Origin: Escherichia phage KS_A8
DNA: 59,853 nt
Direction: 5' to 3' (one strand)
Sequence record: PP627279.1
Part shown: in pieces, positions 1 to 54,593 of the stretch
Layout of the letters: each line of letters starts with the position of its first letter
Numbering within the stretch: the first letter of the stretch is position 1
Notes under the pieces: model-generated
Told to the model about the DNA's origin: nothing
Database searches by the model: none
Seen by the model: only the letters and a program-made list of their open reading frames with translations
Position numbers and translations under genes: made by a program

Positions 1-558
1 ATGAACGGGGCAAGTCAAGAGCAATATGATCGTGACTGGACGAATTACATCCAGTATGCAAATAGCTTGTCCGCTGAAGAGATGGCAATACGTGACAAAG
101 TTGTTGCTGAGTACATGTTCGACTACAATTGGACTAACGCTTGCATGAGATGCGGGTTCAATGCTATGTTTGCACAGGAGCTTGGCCAACGCTTTGCCAC
201 GGACTGTTATGTTCGATGGAAGCTCAAGGAGATTGAAAGATCCCGTGTTCAACGTACTTCTGAGCAAGCTAACATTGAAGCAGACCTTGAGCGTCAGCAT
301 ATCATTGAAGCATTAAAACGTGAAGCTCATTATACAGGACCGGGATCTTCTCAAGCTGCTAGAGTCGCCGCATTGGGCAAGCTTGCACAAATTTATGATT
401 TGGATGCTCCCAAGAAGGCTAAGATTGATGTTACTAACAGAGGTGGCGTAATGATAGTCCCTGCTGTAGCAAATATTGACGAATGGGAAAAAACTGCATC
501 CGAGTCTCAACAACGACTAGTTAAAGAGACTGAAGATGGAGCTAAACCGACAACCTGA
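1..558 (+). CDS. terminase small subunit (putative)
   Basis: 185-aa ORF directly upstream of and overlapping the large terminase; ATG at position 1 is served by RBS AAGAAAGGGGG at the window end, implying circular wrap. Function by position only. Confidence 0.4.
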   Translation: MNGASQEQYDRDWTNYIQYANSLSAEEMAIRDKVVAEYMFDYNWTNACMRCGFNAMFAQELGQRFATDCYVRWKLKEIERSRVQRTSEQANIEADLERQHIIEALKREAHYTGPGSSQAARVAALGKLAQIYDLDAPKKAKIDVTNRGGVMIVPAVANIDEWEKTASESQQRLVKETEDGAKPTT

Positions 559-2095
559 TAACATGCCGCGAGTCGTCTGGAAACCACATCCAGGTTCACA
601 GACACTCGCTCTATCCTGCCCCGCTGATATTATCCTATACCACGGAACTCGCGGTCCTGGAAAAACGGACTGCCAGCTTATGCGTTTCCGTAAGAATGTT
701 GGTGTAGGGTACGGTAAATTTTGGAAGGGTATTATATTCGACCGTGAATATAAAAACCTTGATGACCTTGTAACTAAATCCCAGCGTTGGTTTCCTGAAT
801 TTAAAGACGGGGCTAAATTCCTTAGTTCTAAGTCTGATTATAAATGGGTTTGGCCTACTGGTGAAGAGCTACTGTTCCGCGTTGCTTGTAAAGAAAAGGA
901 TTACTGGTCTTATCACGGTCACGAATACCCATTTATCGGATGGAACGAATTGACAAAATATCCGGACGGGCGTTTGTTTGAAGCTATGATGTCCTGTAAC
1001 CGTTCATCTTTCCTACCAGAAGATAACCCAATTATCAATCCAGATGGTACGGTTACATATTTACCGGATATCCCTCTTGAAGTGTTTGCTACCAGTAACC
1101 CGTTCGGTGCGGGGCATAACTGGGTTAAGAAACGCTTCATTGACGCTGCACCGATGGGTAAAATACTCAGGAAGACTACGCGAGTGTTTAACCCGAGGAC
1201 GCAGAAAGACGAAGATGTGGTTACGACGCAATGCCATATCTTTGGTTCGTACCGTGAAAACAAAAACCTAAGTCCAAAATATATTGCAGAACTTATGTCT
1301 ATCACAGACCCGAACAAGCGTGCTGCATGGTTGGGCGGGAGCTGGGATATTACATCCGGTGGTATGTTCGATGATCTGTGGCGTAGCACTGTTCACAAAG
1401 TACGACCATTCCCGATTCCAGCGAGTTGGAAGATTACACGTTCTTTCGACTGGGGTTCTTCAAAACCGTTCTCTGTCGGTTGGTGGGCTATTAGTGATGG
1501 TTCGGATGTTGTGCGTGAAGATGGCACTACATTCTCCACGGTCCGCGGTGACCTGTTTAGGATTAACGAATGGTATGGGACCAACGGTAAAACAAACGAA
1601 GGTCTACATTTGCTGGACTCAGAAATTGCAAGCGGTATACTGGAGCGGGAATTGGCCTGGGGTATACACGATCGTGTAGTTCCTGGTCCTGCGGATAACT
1701 CCATTTGGGATCTGGAGAACAATAACTCCACCGCTGCAACAATGGCGAAGAAAATTCGTCTTAACGGGAAGTTATACAACGGTATACATTGGAAGCGCAG
1801 TGATAAGTCTGCTGGGTCACGTAAACGAGGCTGGCAGAAAATGCGTGAGTTCCTTAAAGCTGCACTGCGGGAAGATGCGAACGGTAAACCTTTGCCCGGT
1901 CCGCGCGAGAATCCGGCAATGTACATTTTTGATAACTGCAACTATTTCTTTGAGCTGGTTCCAAGTCTACCTCGCGATGAAGTAGATCAGGACGACGTTG
2001 ATACGGAATGTGAAGACCATATGGGTGATGAAGTTCGTTATATGGTTCTGGATCAAGCTGTTTATACAGGTGTTGGCAAAACTATCGGTATTTAA
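536..2095 (+). CDS. terL: terminase large subunit
   Basis: 519 aa; N-terminal P-loop-like HGTRGPGKTD; sits between small terminase and portal. Alternative start ATG at 563 just after the upstream stop. Confidence 0.8.
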   Translation: MELNRQPDNMPRVVWKPHPGSQTLALSCPADIILYHGTRGPGKTDCQLMRFRKNVGVGYGKFWKGIIFDREYKNLDDLVTKSQRWFPEFKDGAKFLSSKSDYKWVWPTGEELLFRVACKEKDYWSYHGHEYPFIGWNELTKYPDGRLFEAMMSCNRSSFLPEDNPIINPDGTVTYLPDIPLEVFATSNPFGAGHNWVKKRFIDAAPMGKILRKTTRVFNPRTQKDEDVVTTQCHIFGSYRENKNLSPKYIAELMSITDPNKRAAWLGGSWDITSGGMFDDLWRSTVHKVRPFPIPASWKITRSFDWGSSKPFSVGWWAISDGSDVVREDGTTFSTVRGDLFRINEWYGTNGKTNEGLHLLDSEIASGILERELAWGIHDRVVPGPADNSIWDLENNNSTAATMAKKIRLNGKLYNGIHWKRSDKSAGSRKRGWQKMREFLKAALREDANGKPLPGPRENPAMYIFDNCNYFFELVPSLPRDEVDQDDVDTECEDHMGDEVRYMVLDQAVYTGVGKTIGI

Positions 2096-2106
2096 CTGGA
2101 GGGTAT

Positions 2107-3603
2107 ATGGGTATTGATGCAACTCACCCGCTATACGACAAGTGGAAGAATGCATGGATTAAGTGCAACGACTGCTATGAGGGTGAAGATAAAATTAAGG
2201 AAGAAGGTGTTAAATATCTACCGCCTTTAGCTTCCATGATTATTGATGGGATGAATAATCCTAATGATTTGGGCTTTCAACGTTGGCTTGCCTATCGTCT
2301 GCGTGCTAACTTCCCTGACGATTATTCAAGTGCGGTTACAAACAATCTAGGTCTGCTGCACCAGAAGCCTCCTACAATCCAGCTCCCCCCTGAAATGGAA
2401 TACATGCGGGATCTGTGTACTGCGGACGGTGAAGACATTATTGCTCTGCTACGTCGCATCAACGAAATGCAGTTAAAAAATGGGCGTTTGGGCCTGCTAC
2501 TGGACTTGCCTAAAGGTGAGGATGTAAATAACAGACCTTATATTAGCGTTTATGACGCTTTATCCATTATCAACTGGGATGATGGTAAAGATGAATTGGG
2601 CAATATCAACTTGAACATGGTTGTTCTGGATGAAAGTGGTCCTGTACGTGTCAATCAGTTTGACTGGAAAGAAGAGAAGCGTTATCGCGTTCTACAATTA
2701 GGTCCAATGGACACAGATGAAGTTGCAGGTGGAGCTGTCTACTCCCAACATCTGTTTATTAACAATACCAATTATGATGAAGGGCAAATGATTGCTCCTT
2801 ATTATAAAGGTAATACGCTGGATGAAATTCCTTTCCAGTTTGTCAATACAACAGATATTACCCCAGCACCGGAAGCGCCGCCATTGTTGGGTCTTGCTAA
2901 CATTTGTCTAAGCATGTACCGAAGTGATGCGGATTACCGCCAAAGCTTGCATATGCAGGGTCAGGACACCTTAGTCGTTGTTGGTGGTACTGGGGAGAAT
3001 GGGGATAAAGCCCCTCAACGCATCGGTCCTGGCGCTGTCATTAACGTTGCTATTGGTGGTGACGCTAAATATGTAGGTGTTAGCGGTGACGGTTTGTCCG
3101 AGCAACGTCTCGCACTTGCAGCGGATAAGCAAGAAGCCCAAATTAAAGCCGGGCAAATGGTAAACAATACCAAGAGTACGCAGGAATCGGGTGAAGCCAT
3201 GAAAACGCGTATTGCTGCGCGTACAGCTAGTCTGATTCGAATTGCGTATACTGGTGCGGCTGGTCTGGAAAACTTGCTGAAGGTTTGCGCTAAGTGGATG
3301 GGCGCTGATCCCGAGAAAGTTGTGGTTAAGCCTAATCTTGAATTCACCAAGAGCATGTTTAACGGTCAAGACTTTGTTCAAATTATCACTGCACGCAACC
3401 TTAAAGCTCCGATTAGCTTGCAGTCTATTCATGGCTGGCTTGTTGATCAGGGATTAACCACACTAAGCTTTGAAGAAGAAATGGCAATTCTTGAAGAAGA
3501 GCTTAAGAAGTGGCCTCTGCCTGATGATGCTAAAGCTGATTTAAACGCAGAGCAGCAAGTAAGCAAAGATCCTAAGGAAGACAACGCTTCCGATAAAGAA
3601 TAG
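2107..3603 (+). CDS. portal protein
   Basis: 498 aa, immediately after terL, acidic C-terminus; call from synteny and size. Confidence 0.7.
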   Translation: MGIDATHPLYDKWKNAWIKCNDCYEGEDKIKEEGVKYLPPLASMIIDGMNNPNDLGFQRWLAYRLRANFPDDYSSAVTNNLGLLHQKPPTIQLPPEMEYMRDLCTADGEDIIALLRRINEMQLKNGRLGLLLDLPKGEDVNNRPYISVYDALSIINWDDGKDELGNINLNMVVLDESGPVRVNQFDWKEEKRYRVLQLGPMDTDEVAGGAVYSQHLFINNTNYDEGQMIAPYYKGNTLDEIPFQFVNTTDITPAPEAPPLLGLANICLSMYRSDADYRQSLHMQGQDTLVVVGGTGENGDKAPQRIGPGAVINVAIGGDAKYVGVSGDGLSEQRLALAADKQEAQIKAGQMVNNTKSTQESGEAMKTRIAARTASLIRIAYTGAAGLENLLKVCAKWMGADPEKVVVKPNLEFTKSMFNGQDFVQIITARNLKAPISLQSIHGWLVDQGLTTLSFEEEMAILEEELKKWPLPDDAKADLNAEQQVSKDPKEDNASDKE

Positions 3604-3698
3604 TTGCAACTTCCAAGTTGATCGGTTTATATTAACGAACACGGGGCTGGGACGGCTCAGCTCCAAAAACGTCACACGGGTGACAACGGAGATAAGAA

Positions 3699-49989: not shown

Positions 49990-50657
49990 AAATCCTCCTA
50001 GTCAACTGGTGAAGCCACTATAAAACAGGCATTAGCTATTTGCAAGGATTGTTTTGATATAGTGCTTAGTGGCGTACATAGTGGAAAATTTGCGTATAGT
50101 ACGCGGTTACTAGCTTTGTAAAAGTTTGCCACTATAAACCACTATCTCACTATTCACTAATTTTTATTTTTACACAGAGCAAAGTTTATAAGTTTATGTT
50201 GCTCCCCTTAACCCCTTATGTAAATCTAAGAATTAGTAGTAGTAGTGAAAACGTGTAAATGCCACTATCACTACTATACTATTAATTCTCTAACATTTGG
50301 TGGGGTATACCCCCCTATAAACTTATAAACTTTCAGTCAACTAACTAAAATAAACCAAATTAAAATAATATTAATAATAAGTATAAATATATATAAAATA
50401 AGGATTTATTATTAATGTATATAGTACCTATTGGTATTATTTGACGAGTTTATGGTCATTATATAAACTCTATAAATTTTCATAAACCTGAACGGATGCA
50501 GATCAAAAATGAGAAGTCAAGTGCTTTTGAGGGAAATTTATTGAACTATTGTGATCGGAAGGTATATCAAGCTATAATGCGCTTAATCGCGGGATATTGG
50601 AGGAGGACTTTATTGCGCGGTTAACCGGACCAGTAGGAGGGCTGGCCCGGCAGAAGT
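49990..50657. promoter_or_regulatory. 668-bp AT-rich non-coding region with CCACTAT repeats, inverted repeats and an extreme AT tract (candidate origin/promoter array)
   Basis: No ORF with an RBS; at least six CCACTAT/ATAGTGG copies; 18-bp inverted repeat AAAGTTTATAAGTTTATG / CATAAACTTATAAACTTT about 125 bp apart; GGGGTATACCCCCC palindrome; roughly 80 bp of near-pure A/T (50340-50425). Confidence 0.4.
50017..50045 (-). promoter_or_regulatory. sigma70-like promoter for the leftward gene at 49989
   Basis: On the minus strand TTGCAA-N17-TATAGT, with the -10 formed by one of the CCACTATA repeats. Confidence 0.35.
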
Positions 50658-50984
50658 TTAGAGCTGTACAGGTATGAAGTGGGCTAGCGTATCGTCGGAC
50701 ATAATACCCGACAGTTTTTCGCTTACCCAATCGGACCAAATACTATCCGGTTCCTGGCGGTGTACAAACCAGATTTCGGATGTGCCTTCTTTGCGCATCG
50801 GTTGCACTTCTGCAAGGAACTTGTCCTGCATAAGGCGGGTGAAGCATACGCTGGTCATTGGAACCGGCTTTTCGTCTTTATTGTAATAAGGGACCAATAT
50901 TTTATTTCCGAAGTCGGCAACTTCATAAACCGTTCCTTTACGTAGACCTCTGATGTCAGTGTAAGAGCGGATGAACTTTTTCAT
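50658..50984 (-). CDS. hypothetical protein
   Basis: 108-aa ORF. Confidence 0.3.
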   Translation of the reverse strand: MKKFIRSYTDIRGLRKGTVYEVADFGNKILVPYYNKDEKPVPMTSVCFTRLMQDKFLAEVQPMRKEGTSEIWFVHRQEPDSIWSDWVSEKLSGIMSDDTLAHFIPVQL

Positions 50985-50986
50985 AT

Positions 50987-51163
50987 TTATTTCCTTACGA
51001 ACACAGAGCCGACGAATAATGTTGACTGAGTGGCAGCTTGCTCGATTAATTCGCCAACAAGCTGGGACTGCGTCAGAGGCTTGAGGCCTTCTTTGGCGCG
51101 AGCTTCATTTACACGACGTTGAAGGTCTTTTAAGTATTGAGTTGCGAAACTATCTAATTGCAT
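50987..51163 (-). CDS. small hypothetical protein (58 aa)
   Basis: Not in the ORF track (below 60 aa); ATG preceded by AGGAGTAACGAAA; stop lies 2 nt before the next start. Confidence 0.35.
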   Translation of the reverse strand: MQLDSFATQYLKDLQRRVNEARAKEGLKPLTQSQLVGELIEQAATQSTLFVGSVFVRK

Positions 51164-51219
51164 TTTCGTTACTCCTAGGGCTCCCGCAGAAGCCCGTCAG
51201 TGAACAGTGTGGTTATAGA

Positions 51220-51834
51220 TTATGCGTCCAGGCCGTTGTATTTGCGCCAGGCGTAGAACTGAATGGCTACCGTAGTCCCGTTGTAAGAAGGCATTGCAGC
51301 TTTCATCTCTTTCAGTTCCGGCGTGCGGCCCAGTTCAGCTAAAAGTTTGTCGCCCATTGCCCACACTTCGGCGGTTTTTCCTTTCAGAGGCTTGCGAGCG
51401 CCATTTTTGAAATCACAGCGAGCAGCTTTTACATCCTGTTTTGGCGCGGCAGCTTTTGGCTCTTCAATTTTGATTTCAGAAACCGGCTTGGCAGCTTTTG
51501 CGTGTTTCATATCTTTCTCTTCCTCCTGCTCCAAAGCTTCGAGGCAGCTTTTGACAATTTCCGGATTTACCATCGGACGCAGTACCGAGACGCTGGCTGC
51601 TGGCGCGGCGGTCGGTGCTGGGACTTTCTGCTCCGGCTGTTGCGCTTTTTCGTGATCGCGCAGCACCTGAAGGACTTCCTTTTCGACGATGTAAAAACCG
51701 ATATCGTCCTGATGGATTAACTGTTCGTGTGCATCGCGTGCAACCTGGCCCCAGCGAGTTTTTAGAGCGCGGCGTGCATTCGTTTTCATGGTGTAGCGCA
51801 TTTTATCCTGTTCGCGGTGAGTTACTTTAGACAT
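51220..51834 (-). CDS. Ala/Lys/Glu-rich protein, paralog of the 34452-35261 product
   Basis: Start set at MSKVTH (RBS AAGGAG); low-complexity centre and C-terminus ...FYAWRKYNGLDA matching ...QYARWKKFNG of the other gene. Confidence 0.35.
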   Translation of the reverse strand: MSKVTHREQDKMRYTMKTNARRALKTRWGQVARDAHEQLIHQDDIGFYIVEKEVLQVLRDHEKAQQPEQKVPAPTAAPAASVSVLRPMVNPEIVKSCLEALEQEEEKDMKHAKAAKPVSEIKIEEPKAAAPKQDVKAARCDFKNGARKPLKGKTAEVWAMGDKLLAELGRTPELKEMKAAMPSYNGTTVAIQFYAWRKYNGLDA

Positions 51835-51907
51835 GGTATAGCTCCTTTCGTTAAAGTTAGTTTGCTTATTACTGCCCACCGTAATGATGAGCAGTGTATA
51901 AGAAAAC

Positions 51908-52156
51908 TTACTGCACGATTGCTACGAAATCGGCGGTTGCGATATCCATGCTTGCGAAAGCAACGATGCCATAGTCGGTGTCGTTTTCGGCGTTAAAAGC
52001 TTTGAGGAACTGCTGTACCGCTGCTTTATGGTTAAGCGTTACGTCGATAGCATAGTCCCAGCTATAGACTTTGCGCTTGCCAAAACCTTTAACTGCAATG
52101 CGTGCGCCTTTGGTGTTAGTTGGTGCCAAAAATTTGGTGACGATAGAAGTAGCCAT
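51908..52156 (-). CDS. hypothetical protein
   Basis: 82-aa ORF. Confidence 0.3.
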   Translation of the reverse strand: MATSIVTKFLAPTNTKGARIAVKGFGKRKVYSWDYAIDVTLNHKAAVQQFLKAFNAENDTDYGIVAFASMDIATADFVAIVQ

Positions 52157-52225
52157 GATGTATATCCTCGTTTTGTTTAAGTTGACTTATTATTGCCCAG
52201 TCAGATCAACTAGGCAAGATATAAA

Positions 52226-52438
52226 TCACTTAATTTGTACCAAATCGTATTCTTTGTAAATTTCGCTAATGTACATATCGAACTGACCCATTAAGAAGAT
52301 TTCGGCCTCCTCCCAGCTTGGGGCAGATACATAACCGGCTATTTTACCGGACGCGAGTTCCACTAATTTGAATTCCATGATGCAACCCTTAATGTGGTTA
52401 AGCAGTATTGCTTTGTTGAAGTAATAATAGCCTTGCAT
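52226..52438 (-). CDS. hypothetical protein (first leftward early gene)
   Basis: 70-aa ORF next to the divergent promoter region. Confidence 0.3.
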   Translation of the reverse strand: MQGYYYFNKAILLNHIKGCIMEFKLVELASGKIAGYVSAPSWEEAEIFLMGQFDMYISEIYKEYDLVQIK

Positions 52439-52589
52439 CGTGATATTGAATAGGCCAAAAGTGCGATTTTGATATTGTTTTGCATCTAGTGAAAATTATG
52501 CTTGCCATGCATATTTAGCACTAATGGCCTAACTAACATCACATTATCTGGCGTATTCGCGCGGGCGCACACATGCTTATAAGGTGGTG

Positions 52590-52715
52590 CCGGATCGACC
52601 AGGTGGGAGCGGTGCACAGGATCGACCAGGGGCATCCGGTGCCCTGCGTGTGCGGAGCCTACCAGGTGGAAGCAGCTCCTGCGTGTGCCGGAAATACCAG
52701 GGGCGCGCGAGCCCA
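52590..52715. repeat. GC-rich degenerate direct repeats in the divergent control region
   Basis: GGATCGACCAGG at 52592 and 52619; ACCAGGTGG at 52598 and 52671; ACCAGGGG at 52625 and 52696; CTGCGTGTGC at 52644 and 52679. Confidence 0.4.
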
Positions 52716-52756
52716 TGCACTTTACAAAATATTTTTATAAAAAGTGCAAAAAGGTG

Positions 52757-52785
52757 TAGACACATGATCGGTCTAGCACTACTAT
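52757..52785 (+). promoter_or_regulatory. sigma70-like promoter for the rightward block
   Basis: TAGACA-N17-TACTAT about 50 bp upstream of the 52838 start. Confidence 0.3.
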
Positions 52786-52837
52786 ATACACATACCGCAA
52801 GGGTACTACAAATTAACTAATTCACGGGGGGTACAAA

Positions 52838-53101
52838 ATGGTCCGCATCCTGGAACGTTATAAAAACGAAGCTACTGGCGCTATTGCATTCAAACGCATG
52901 TTAGTAAAACAAATCGACGGTTTATTCCGTGTCGTTAAAGAAGTCGATTACGGCAACGGCGCAGGGGTGAGCACCACTATCGTCCCGGGCATTAAAGCGT
53001 ATAAAACTTTAAAAGGGGCCGAGAAAGCCTTAGCCGCCTGGAAACCTGCTCGTTATCAATTGACCCGTGTCGAAGGGCTTATGCAGGAAGGTAAAATCTA
53101 A
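52838..53101 (+). CDS. hypothetical protein
   Basis: 87 aa, RBS GGGGGG. Confidence 0.35.
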   Translation: MVRILERYKNEATGAIAFKRMLVKQIDGLFRVVKEVDYGNGAGVSTTIVPGIKAYKTLKGAEKALAAWKPARYQLTRVEGLMQEGKI

Positions 53102-53169
53102 GTTTGTTTATACAATGGGCATTAATACAGTGCCCATTAATAAGCTAACTAATCCTATCGAGGTATATT

Positions 53170-53454
53170 ATGTCCATCGTTACTATGTCGTTCTTCGACC
53201 ATTGCAATAACGAAAAACAAATTATCGTTAACCTGCAAAAAGGGTTGGTTGTTGCACGCAATGCTAACCGTCAATGCATCGCGCTAACCGATTTTGCTTT
53301 CCGCCTTAACGTGGACAACACCACCGCCAAAAATATCGTTCACGATACGGCGATGGAAGCTGCTCATGCTGCGAAGGATAAAGGTATCCGCGCAGCACGC
53401 GAAATCATGCACAAAGCGCTCGGCATCACGTTCTTCGTTGGCATTAAGGGGTAA
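53170..53454 (+). CDS. hypothetical protein
   Basis: 94 aa, RBS GAGG. Confidence 0.3.
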   Translation: MSIVTMSFFDHCNNEKQIIVNLQKGLVVARNANRQCIALTDFAFRLNVDNTTAKNIVHDTAMEAAHAAKDKGIRAAREIMHKALGITFFVGIKG

Positions 53455-53459
53455 CTACT

Positions 53460-53603
53460 ATGGCACGCAAATACTCGCTTACACGCGCGCAGCACGCGCT
53501 ATTATTGCAGGTTATGCGCATGGAGTACGAAGAGACTACATGGGCGCAGGCTATGCAAACTGGGCGCGAGTTCTACGCGCAATTAATAGCACAAAATGCC
53601 TAG
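53460..53603 (+). CDS. small hypothetical protein (47 aa)
   Basis: Not in the track; ATG 53460 after AAGGGG; the overlapping 53294-53656 track ORF is in another frame. Confidence 0.3.
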   Translation: MARKYSLTRAQHALLLQVMRMEYEETTWAQAMQTGREFYAQLIAQNA

Positions 53604-53661
53604 ACAACATGATCGGTCTGGTGGATACTACACACATCAACCAAACAACGGGGTAAACAAA

Positions 53662-53901
53662 ATGCGTAGTTTCAAATGTGTAAGCGTAAACGATAATGCT
53701 AAGGCTAGTGCTAAGGGTCTGTTCACAGTAGGTAAAGTGTATGACTTCAACATGGAAAGTTATATACACATAACCCTCACGGGCGTAATGTTCGGCGACG
53801 TTGGTGCTGTACGCTGCGATTTAAACAAGTACACGGAAAAGGAATATGCCCTTATCAGCCGCTACACGGGCGAGCCGTTAGCTGTGTTCCATGCAGCTTA
53901 A
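53662..53901 (+). CDS. hypothetical protein
   Basis: Start set at MRSFK (RBS GGGGTAA); 79 aa. Confidence 0.3.
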   Translation: MRSFKCVSVNDNAKASAKGLFTVGKVYDFNMESYIHITLTGVMFGDVGAVRCDLNKYTEKEYALISRYTGEPLAVFHAA

Positions 53902-53928
53902 GCTATAACGCACACAGCGCCACGCTAG

Positions 53929-53967
53929 CGAGCTAATGCACAAAGGCAATGGTAATGCATTAGCTCG
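53929..53967. repeat. 12-bp perfect inverted repeat (stem-loop/operator candidate)
   Basis: CGAGCTAATGCA (53929-53940) and TGCATTAGCTCG (53956-53967) separated by 15 nt. Confidence 0.4.
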
Positions 53968-53978
53968 GGCGAAACAGG

Positions 53979-54050
53979 CGCACAGCGTCGCGCACAGCTC
54001 GCACAGCGCACACCGACCCACGCAGGCCCAGCCGCGCGACCCGACCCATC
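53979..54050. repeat. GC-rich CGCACAGC and CGACCC direct repeats
   Basis: CGCACAGC at 53979, 53991 and 54000, followed by CGACCCA, CGACCCG, ACCCATCC. Confidence 0.35.
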
Positions 54051-54335
54051 CTTTTCCAGGTACTTGGATCGCTGGGGCGTGCCCTGTCCATCCTGATAGT
54101 AAGTGCTTGTCTAAATCTCACCCATCACTTTACTATCCACCTACATCCATGACCCCCCACCTACCTTCTTTTTGAATATATTGCGCTCATCCTTTCTAAA
54201 TATATGGATTTTGGTAGTAAATCCTGAGTCGTCAACGTATAATTCGTCTTGTAGCTGCTCCATAGCTACCATCTTTAAGCGGATGCAACCAATTTCTATC
54301 AATTCTTACCAGTTTTAGAGCATCAAGGAGGTATT

Positions 54336-54593
54336 ATGTGCGACTCCAGTGCAAGCGCTACACCCAGCACCTCCAGCAATGTGGTTACAGAGGTAAATGC
54401 AATGCGATTAGGTCCATATCGCGGCTATTATGGTCGTGCTGCATGGAATGACGCTACTCAACGTTTTGAAGGCTGGATTATCTGCCCGGAACGTGTTAAA
54501 TTTCACTCCGTAAAAGAGAAAAATATCGTTCTTAATTTTCAAAAATGTGTCACTAAATATGTAGAGGAGCAAGAAGAATGTCTTACCAATTAG
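54336..54593 (+). CDS. hypothetical protein
   Basis: 85 aa, RBS AAGGAGG. Confidence 0.35.
   Translation: MCDSSASATPSTSSNVVTEVNAMRLGPYRGYYGRAAWNDATQRFEGWIICPERVKFHSVKEKNIVLNFQKCVTKYVEEQEECLTN

Follow-up and report, generated by a model that had tools for sequence, protein, structure and literature searches.

The 434-bp gap at positions 53902-54335 of the 59,853-bp stretch of DNA analysed here (the window) is read by us, with about even confidence and on the strength of sequence comparisons, as the non-coding right-hand edge of a direct terminal repeat (DTR) of roughly 3.8 kb, where the virion DNA would end between positions 54085 and 54086 and where an RNA 3'-end hairpin, a Rho-type stop and a promoter restart would lie side by side. 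The window is a complete Seuratvirus (Queuovirinae) genome that was opened at the start codon (ATG) of terS, the small terminase gene, and has no long internal repeats; it is most closely related to Cronobacter phage CSP1 and Escherichia phage CSP1C (97% identity). The gap separates two small genes on the + strand, for both of which a PHROGs search returned nothing beyond 'unknown function', and a divergent promoter region is found 1.1 kb to its left. The protein encoded downstream (54336-54593) resembles by eye the N-terminal fold of HicB-like antitoxins (motif GPYRGYYGRAAWND...FEGWI...FHS); its homologue is named 'Hfq' in the CSP1C record, and Pfam gave no significant match for the window protein.

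A genome end at this position is suggested by two relatives whose records carry the same sequence at both ends. In ECP2304 (OR880647.1; 63,590 bp) positions 1-3695 recur at 59896-63590, and in Hafnia phage yong3 (OM868075.1; 62,823 bp) positions 1-3424 recur at 59400-62823, in both cases with 100% identity, giving repeats of 3,695 bp and 3,424 bp. The right boundaries of the two repeats map to the same window nucleotide, between 54085 and 54086, immediately preceding (G/A)TCCATCCTGATAGTA: the window and yong3 read GCCCT and GGGAT, respectively, up to the boundary and GTCCATCCTGATAGTA beyond it, and ECP2304 reads GCCCTT followed by ATCCATCCTGATAGTA. The left boundaries lie 20-21 nt after a common TGGGTAG motif, agree within 1 nt, and map to an AT-rich non-coding region near window positions 50244-50275, where a mosaic breakpoint of several relatives (window 50274) is also found. 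The ends of these two diverged relatives are thus reproducible and sequence-specific, as DTR boundaries are, with identical nucleotides on the right and a difference of at most 1 nt on the left. Transferred by homology from these two database records, the repeat in the window would be a single collapsed copy at 50245-54085 (left boundary approximate, within 50244-50275), and the predicted physical right end of the virion DNA, at 54085-54086, coincides with a breakpoint between two sequence types (A and B, see below) and with a switch in composition, the GC content falling from 69% over the terminal 118 bp of the repeat to 40% over the first 125 bp beyond it.

Long terminal repeats are also present elsewhere in the subfamily. 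The Nonagvirus HdK1 (MK373794.1), from a third laboratory, has an exact terminal repeat of 3,367 bp, and it is in relatives, ECP2304, yong3 and HdK1, that repeats at both ends are seen, the window itself being a collapsed genome. The right boundary of HdK1, GGGGCGGCTC followed by TTAGATCTCTGCC, has no similarity to the Seuratvirus boundary. The HdK1 repeat excludes the rightward genes, and Seuratvirus and Nonagvirus therefore place the end of the repeat differently. A DTR of 1,091 bp was reported for the Queuovirinae phage iggy, its termini located by mapping Nanopore reads (PMC10484667). Terminal repeats are absent from 33 of the approximately 35 Seuratvirus records, which would be expected of assemblies that collapse the repeat but does not prove such a collapse, and the yong3 record is labelled 'circular'. 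Metagenome and Logan contigs that contain the downstream gene break in a polymorphic spacer near 54132 and not at the terminus, and are uninformative about the ends.

The region is held by about 35 Seuratvirus records at 88-97% identity, whichever gene lies upstream, and with more divergence by Salmonella phage STP-SP5, by yong3 and by a metagenome contig, L035. Outside the genus no similar sequence was found: no match to the region occurs in 5,426 E. coli genomes that were searched for a host origin, and pattern scans of IMG/VR and metagenomes returned Seuratvirus-like contigs only, the other 14 matches to a 17-mer being due to chance. Conservation begins sharply at or next to the upstream stop codon with the block TATAACGCACACAGCG (53904-53919, + strand). 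The blocks shared across lineages are the GCACAGC triplets, ACCCGACCCA, the invariant GGTACTT (54059-54065, 21-27 bp inside the repeat end), the invariant GTCCATCCTGATAGTA (54086-54101, the first bases outside the repeat) and AAAATCT, and a further set composed of CCCCACCTACCT, GAATAT, AAATTCTGA and CATCTTTAAGCGGATG (54270-54285), the last of which is invariant in all lineages but yong3, where it has diverged. A few of these blocks have single substitutions in STP-SP5 or yong3, and CCCCACCTACCTT (54155-54167) is also conserved.

Two types of sequence are found to the left of the end. In the type B phages (SA126VB, SLUR25, Skure, Dru_SM1 and ECP2304) the right arm of the hairpin described below and the CGCACAGC repeats, up to about 54081 (window ~53960-54081), are replaced by about 250 nt containing another strong hairpin, CAGGCTGTACG...CGTACGGCCTG, and a TATAAT, which are annotated in the SA126VB record as a terminator and a promoter. 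Similarity to the window resumes at 54081, so that the breakpoint between type A, to which the window belongs, and type B falls at 54081-54086. Around the cut all of these phages have in common GGTACT(T), (G/A)TCCATCCTGATAGTA, AAATCT and CCCCACCTACCTT, and (G/A)TCCATCCTGATAGTA is invariant in both types, whose TerS proteins are 98.9-100% identical; a conserved sequence in cis thus accompanies the same terminase at the cut. The best candidate for an end-formation signal would be GGTACTT-N20 followed directly beyond the cut by GTCCATCCTGATAGTA. A search for a cut-site motif common to the left and right boundaries gave only weak likeness, with GGTA ~26 nt upstream and TGATAG-like strings downstream.

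Two further arrangements involve the sequence to the right of the end. Five relatives (SA80RD, Dru_SM1, Skure, WildeMaa and phiG7) contain an HNH homing-endonuclease cassette that starts after ...CCTACC, between 54165 and 54166 and about 80 bp outside the repeat end, has its own extended -10 promoter (TGCTAAAAT), and takes the place of the promoter region and of the 5' part of the gene 54336 homologue, which has a GTG start in SA80RD and Skure. On the minus strand at 21838-21880, CCATATATGGATTTGTTAAGCGGATGTAACCAA repeats the motifs at 54200-54211 and 54275-54292 (17 of 18 positions) in inverse orientation and without the 61 nt that part them here. Immediately downstream is the ribosome-binding site that precedes a + strand ORF (annotated start 21762; listed ATG near 21891), and CCATATATGGATTTGTTAAGCGGATGTAACCAA may be a DNA-level binding site.

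Inside the predicted repeat end, 118-157 bp from it, is a perfect 12-bp inverted repeat, CGAGCTAATGCA-N15-TGCATTAGCTCG (53929-53940 and 53956-53967, + strand). An earlier note on this DNA had drawn attention to it, to three CGCACAGC copies at 53979, 53991 and 54000 and to CGACCC repeats in the GC-rich stretch that follows, all of which were found as described, the GC content of 100-nt windows over 53950-54099 being 67-68% compared to 44.7% genome-wide. Two perfect inverted repeats of 12 bp with a loop of 3-20 nt are present in the 59,853 bp, against 0.07 expected from dinucleotide shuffles, the second being a canonical terminator (18282). The RNA hairpin of 39 nt has a folding energy of -17.1 kcal/mol, and together with its flanks (80 nt) one of -32.6 kcal/mol (z = -4.5), an interrupted stem (GCGCC...GGCGC, CGCT...GGCG) extending over 53917-53981 in folds of the + strand; for the region as a whole z is -2.2 on the + strand, mostly due to this hairpin, and -0.7 on the - strand. 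The hairpin adjoins the upstream stop codon whichever gene precedes, and some hairpin is present there in every lineage, although it is weak in L035 and yong3 and shifted in the type B phages.

The pattern of substitutions bears on whether this structure acts as RNA or as DNA. In STP-SP5 compensatory changes in the inner stem keep a 10-bp stem (GAGCTAGCCC / GGGCTAGCTC), and three independent single-sided stem changes in close relatives are all C to T (53929 in Greed and SA80RD, 53939 in many relatives, and 53966 in Seurat), each leaving a G·U pair on the + strand and an A·C mismatch on the other. Such a pattern favours a single-stranded (RNA) hairpin over a duplex palindrome, the argument comprising three substitutions and having a p of about 0.125 under neutrality. 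L034-type sequences have one true mismatch in the stem, the loop motif AAGGYAATGGTAAT is better conserved than the inner stem, and in L035 the loop is possibly inverted, as read from the alignment. Given its position after the last early gene and this substitution pattern, the hairpin is best read as an RNA 3'-end structure of the early operon. The earlier note's 'strong hairpin or operator' is accordingly retained in part: a strong and non-random hairpin is present, and the operator is not borne out, because the stem variants keep G·U pairing, and on the + strand only. A lambda-type nut site was rejected; the 12-bp stem and 15-nt loop are not the 5-bp stem and pentaloop of boxB, and the only boxA-like string in the region, CGCTCATCC at 54184-54192 (boxA being CGCTCTTA-like), is not kept in the diverged lineages.

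The three CGCACAGC copies (53979-54007, + strand; spacing 12 and 9 nt; counts and TRF) lie 79-100 bp inside the repeat end and form a real cluster, since the genome has six copies on both strands, with 2.1 expected, and three of these are within 29 bp. STP-SP5, L035 and yong3 have equivalent GCACAGC(G) triplets, which are thus kept in four type A lineages. The CGACCC repeats, which include the conserved ACCCGACCCA, are at 54014, 54037 and 54042 (54014-54048, + strand; counts and alignment). Relative to the predicted end, both sets are conserved sub-terminal repeats. An iteron origin has three or more direct repeats of 17-22 bp beside an AT-rich region that unwinds; the CGCACAGC copies are 8-mers spaced by 12 and 9 nt, and a stretch of 72% AT lies nearby at 54166-54215. 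A far better origin candidate is at 50.1-50.45 kb, with 15% GC and CACTAT repeats. This belongs to a second large non-coding region, 49990-50657, which starts out rich in C on the - (sense) strand, directly following gene 50658-50984, has a core of 15-21% GC at 50300-50450 and many CACTAT/ATAGTG repeats, and contains the predicted left boundary of the repeat (about 50244-50275); it is also the leading candidate for a replication origin.

Another GC island, at 52540-52732, was compared with that of the gap in both orientations, and the similarity did not exceed that of shuffled controls. Within the divergent promoter region a GC-rich non-coding island (52587-52709, 66-69% GC) contains four copies of a unit of ~25 nt, GTGCCGGATCGACCAGGTGG, with start-to-start spacings of 27-36 nt; a CDS is annotated at the equivalent position in the CAjan record, and homologous repeats (GTGCCGGAAATACCAGGTAGC) are found ~250-300 bp inside the right DTR end of HdK1. 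Two promoter-like sites, 52757-52785 and 53601-53629, both have TAGACA followed by ATGATCGGTCT in the spacer, and are probably early rightward promoters of the phage.

The DNA immediately to the right of the predicted end has an extreme composition. On the + strand the tract 54086-54210 is C-rich, G-poor and unstructured; its core, 54117-54196, has 32 C and 4 G and is the top C>G stretch of the genome (about 5 SD), and among 3,096 sense-strand windows the RNA of 54101-54210 has the least structure, folding with -3 to -3.7 kcal/mol per 100 nt compared to -22.3 ± 5.5 on average. In other lineages the variable spacers keep this composition, with C:G ratios from 8:0 to 16:1. Rho-dependent terminators have at least about 80 nt of untranslated, C-rich, G-poor and unstructured RNA, and this tract provides such RNA with no conserved ORF; by composition and folding it looks like a Rho-loading (rut) site. 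Its block-level conservation is greater than Rho loading needs, which points to further roles.

Promoter-like sites in both directions follow the tract. Reading rightwards is TAGTAA-N17-TATAAT (54215-54243, + strand; TATACT in diverged lineages), which was read by eye and from the alignment and is absent from the promoter-scan list; its -35 box matches the consensus at 3 of 6 positions and is like the TAGACA boxes at 52757 and 53601. A hairpin, GTAGCT...AGCTAC (54251-54269, + strand), begins at the predicted +1 and would form the 5' end of the transcript, followed by the CATCTTTAAGCGGATG block and a ribosome-binding site. This hairpin covaries across three lineages, with GTACC/GGTAC in STP-SP5 and GCGCTA/TAGCG in L035, and has G·U-type variants in SeppeHuegi and slur01. 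Facing the repeat end on the - strand is TTGACG-N16-CAAAAT (54208-54235), with the same geometry in four lineages. It is conceivable, although we think it improbable, that transcription leftwards from this site (54235-54208) makes a G-rich RNA over the extremely C-rich template just beyond the repeat and thereby a stable R-loop that would mark the terminase cut or prime a leftward synthesis duplicating the repeat; transcription and packaging would then be coupled much as they are at the T7 concatemer junction, but through the host polymerase.

How these elements may act together at a repeat edge can be outlined as follows. The terminal repeats of the relatives and their homologous boundaries are observed directly, and by homology the packaged DNA of this phage would end between 54085 and 54086, 118 bp past the hairpin. 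The unique part would begin with GTCCATCCTGATAGTA, and this sequence and GGTACTT are jointly the leading candidate for a signal of end formation. The non-coding status, the extremes of composition and structure and the substitution patterns are likewise direct observations, and from them we infer the events at the level of transcription. The hairpin, which directly follows the final rightward early gene of the repeat and its stop codon, would be a stabiliser of the transcript 3' end or part of a factor-dependent stop. In the right-hand copy of the repeat, transcripts would run off the DNA end; in the left-hand copy they would enter the C-rich, G-poor and least structured stretch, where Rho may load. 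The putative sigma-70-type promoter and the 5' stem-loop (54215-54269) would then restart transcription for gene 54336 onward. The earlier note had seen a 'transcriptional boundary' between gene groups, and the boundary holds, given the onset of conservation at the stop codon and the promoter-like site and covarying hairpin downstream; what it overlooked is the junction of terminal repeat and unique DNA, placed here by homology with two relatives.

Other explanations of the same features have to be weighed against a repeat edge. The inverted repeat and the CGCACAGC copies could be DNA packaging signals, either as TerS-binding repeats or as a fold-back hairpin that duplicates the terminal repeat, a role proposed at the T7 concatemer junction, which we regard as unlikely but worth considering: they are 79-157 bp from the predicted genome end, four type A lineages have kept the GCACAGC triplets, a hairpin intermediate was reported for T7 concatemer processing (as summarised in PMC4281155), and if DNA of the top strand folded back, G·T would likewise be the mildest of mismatches. 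However, both phages with documented repeats lack a strong inverted repeat, ECP2304 being of type B and yong3 having a weak hairpin, and because neither the CGCACAGC triplet nor the 12-bp stem is present in type B phages, whose TerS is nonetheless nearly identical, the TerS site must lie in sequence common to both types; the hairpin and the CGCACAGC copies are thus unlikely to be the recognition site. A somewhat smaller probability is given to there being no fixed end at all, with the database repeats as assembly products and the region as a long regulatory intergenic one that combines an operon-end hairpin, a Rho-dependent terminator and a promoter. The absence of repeats from most records and the circular flag of yong3 fit this, and the regulatory features do not depend on the ends. 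But arbitrary assembly overlaps cannot explain repeats that end at the same homologous nucleotide in two phages only ~70% identical there, a position that is also marked by the mosaic breakpoint and the composition switch, and long DTRs are present in the third record, HdK1, and in the published iggy genome at 1,091 bp (PMC10484667). That the hairpin is a Rho-independent terminator, as annotated in OL960575 (SA80RD), is improbable. WebGeSTer and TransTermHP both predicted the homologous 49 nt of that record and the stem is stable, with 12 bp including 6 GC pairs, but the loop of 15 nt compares with a required 3-8 nt, on its 3' side the stem has GGGCGAAACAGG in place of a U tract, and our terminator scan did not call it although canonical terminators elsewhere in the genome were called (e.g. 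42138 and 58838). The large loop and the missing U tract exclude the hairpin from the intrinsic terminators.

A palindromic DNA operator for a dimeric regulator, or a structured non-coding RNA, is a poor prospect. The palindrome is perfect and the loop motif is more conserved than the inner stem, as either might require, but the half-sites are 27 bp apart centre to centre, and asymmetric variants of the G·U type would break a duplex palindrome. As to a structured RNA, no consensus structure is shared by five lineages on either strand (structure conservation index 0.06-0.41; consensus fold -4.9 kcal/mol over 186 columns), Rfam had no match at gathering thresholds and none in the gap 53902-54335 at E <= 10, and an ARAGORN scan for tRNA and tmRNA found nothing. 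It is least probable of all, and very much so, that the region is protein-coding, through ORF 53936-54175 (+) or an ORF on the minus strand. Nearly all six frames are open, as a consequence of the high GC content, and several records annotate CDSs: Seurat gp70 (the 126-aa CPT_Seurat70), a 92-aa CAjan CDS, bas23_0080, bas24_0078, CSP1C_074 and Greed ANY29776 are located at 53936-54175 (+) or 54141-54302 (-). No reading frame is conserved across the relatives on either strand, however. The frame open at the invariant blocks is one in the window and STP-SP5 and another in L035 and yong3, a 1-nt indel in STP-SP5 shifts the frame between neighbouring blocks, a C homopolymer varies in length (4, 6 and 13 copies), and CDSs annotated from the same ATG are 126, 92, 79, 71 and 58 aa long in different records as a result of frameshifting indels. 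A Pfam search of the ORFs in the region found nothing, and the + strand ORFs would span the predicted genome end. The earlier note had dismissed ORF 53936-54175 as not credible, and the annotated CDSs on both strands are probably spurious.

If the region is the edge of a terminal repeat, Seuratviruses, and apparently also their sister genus Nonagvirus, would be long-DTR phages, and their terminal repeat would contain the first early genes along with the divergent early promoters. Some 33 of the 35 public Seuratvirus genomes would then have been deposited in collapsed form and opened at terS, with spurious genes such as CPT_Seurat70 and the 92-aa CAjan CDS annotated across the physical end. The true ends are of consequence to anyone who engineers or reboots these genomes, models their injection and early expression, or assigns their packaging type. 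A DTR boundary is a known kind of feature; searches of open-access full text found no papers describing the termini or transcript maps of Seuratviruses.

Several known systems offer comparisons. The T7/T3 concatemer junction has a DTR of 160 bp flanked by short repeat arrays, with a pause or termination signal for RNA polymerase. The region described here is similar in its DTR and sequence-specific ends (by homology), in the short and inverted repeats within ~160 bp of the end, and in the predicted transcription signals at the junction; it differs in the length of the repeat, ~3.8 kb, and in the genes that this carries, the sequences are not similar, the phage does not encode an RNA polymerase, and the inverted repeat is dispensable in relatives with documented repeats. 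In lambda tR1, a Rho-dependent terminator, C-rich rut sites surround a hairpin after the cro gene. The order of stop codon, hairpin and a long untranslated, C-rich, G-poor and unstructured RNA before the next block of genes is alike in both, whereas boxA and the boxB-like 5-bp stem with pentaloop are missing here and the conserved blocks in the tract suggest added roles. With intrinsic terminators the region shares a stable stem-loop after a gene, but the lack of a U tract and the 15-nt loop place it outside that family. In T5-like phages the long repeats contain pre-early genes, and T5 also has nicks and a two-step injection. As in T5, a long DTR here would contain the earliest promoters and small early genes, so that either entering end delivers them, although the phages belong to different virus families and the repeat of ~3.8 kb is smaller than that of T5, about 10 kb (PMC6563267). 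The closest parallel by taxonomy is the DTR of iggy, a member of the same subfamily, Queuovirinae, which would have the same kind of ends, but whose repeat is shorter (1,091 bp) and whose genome has <10% nucleotide similarity to other phages (PMC10484667).
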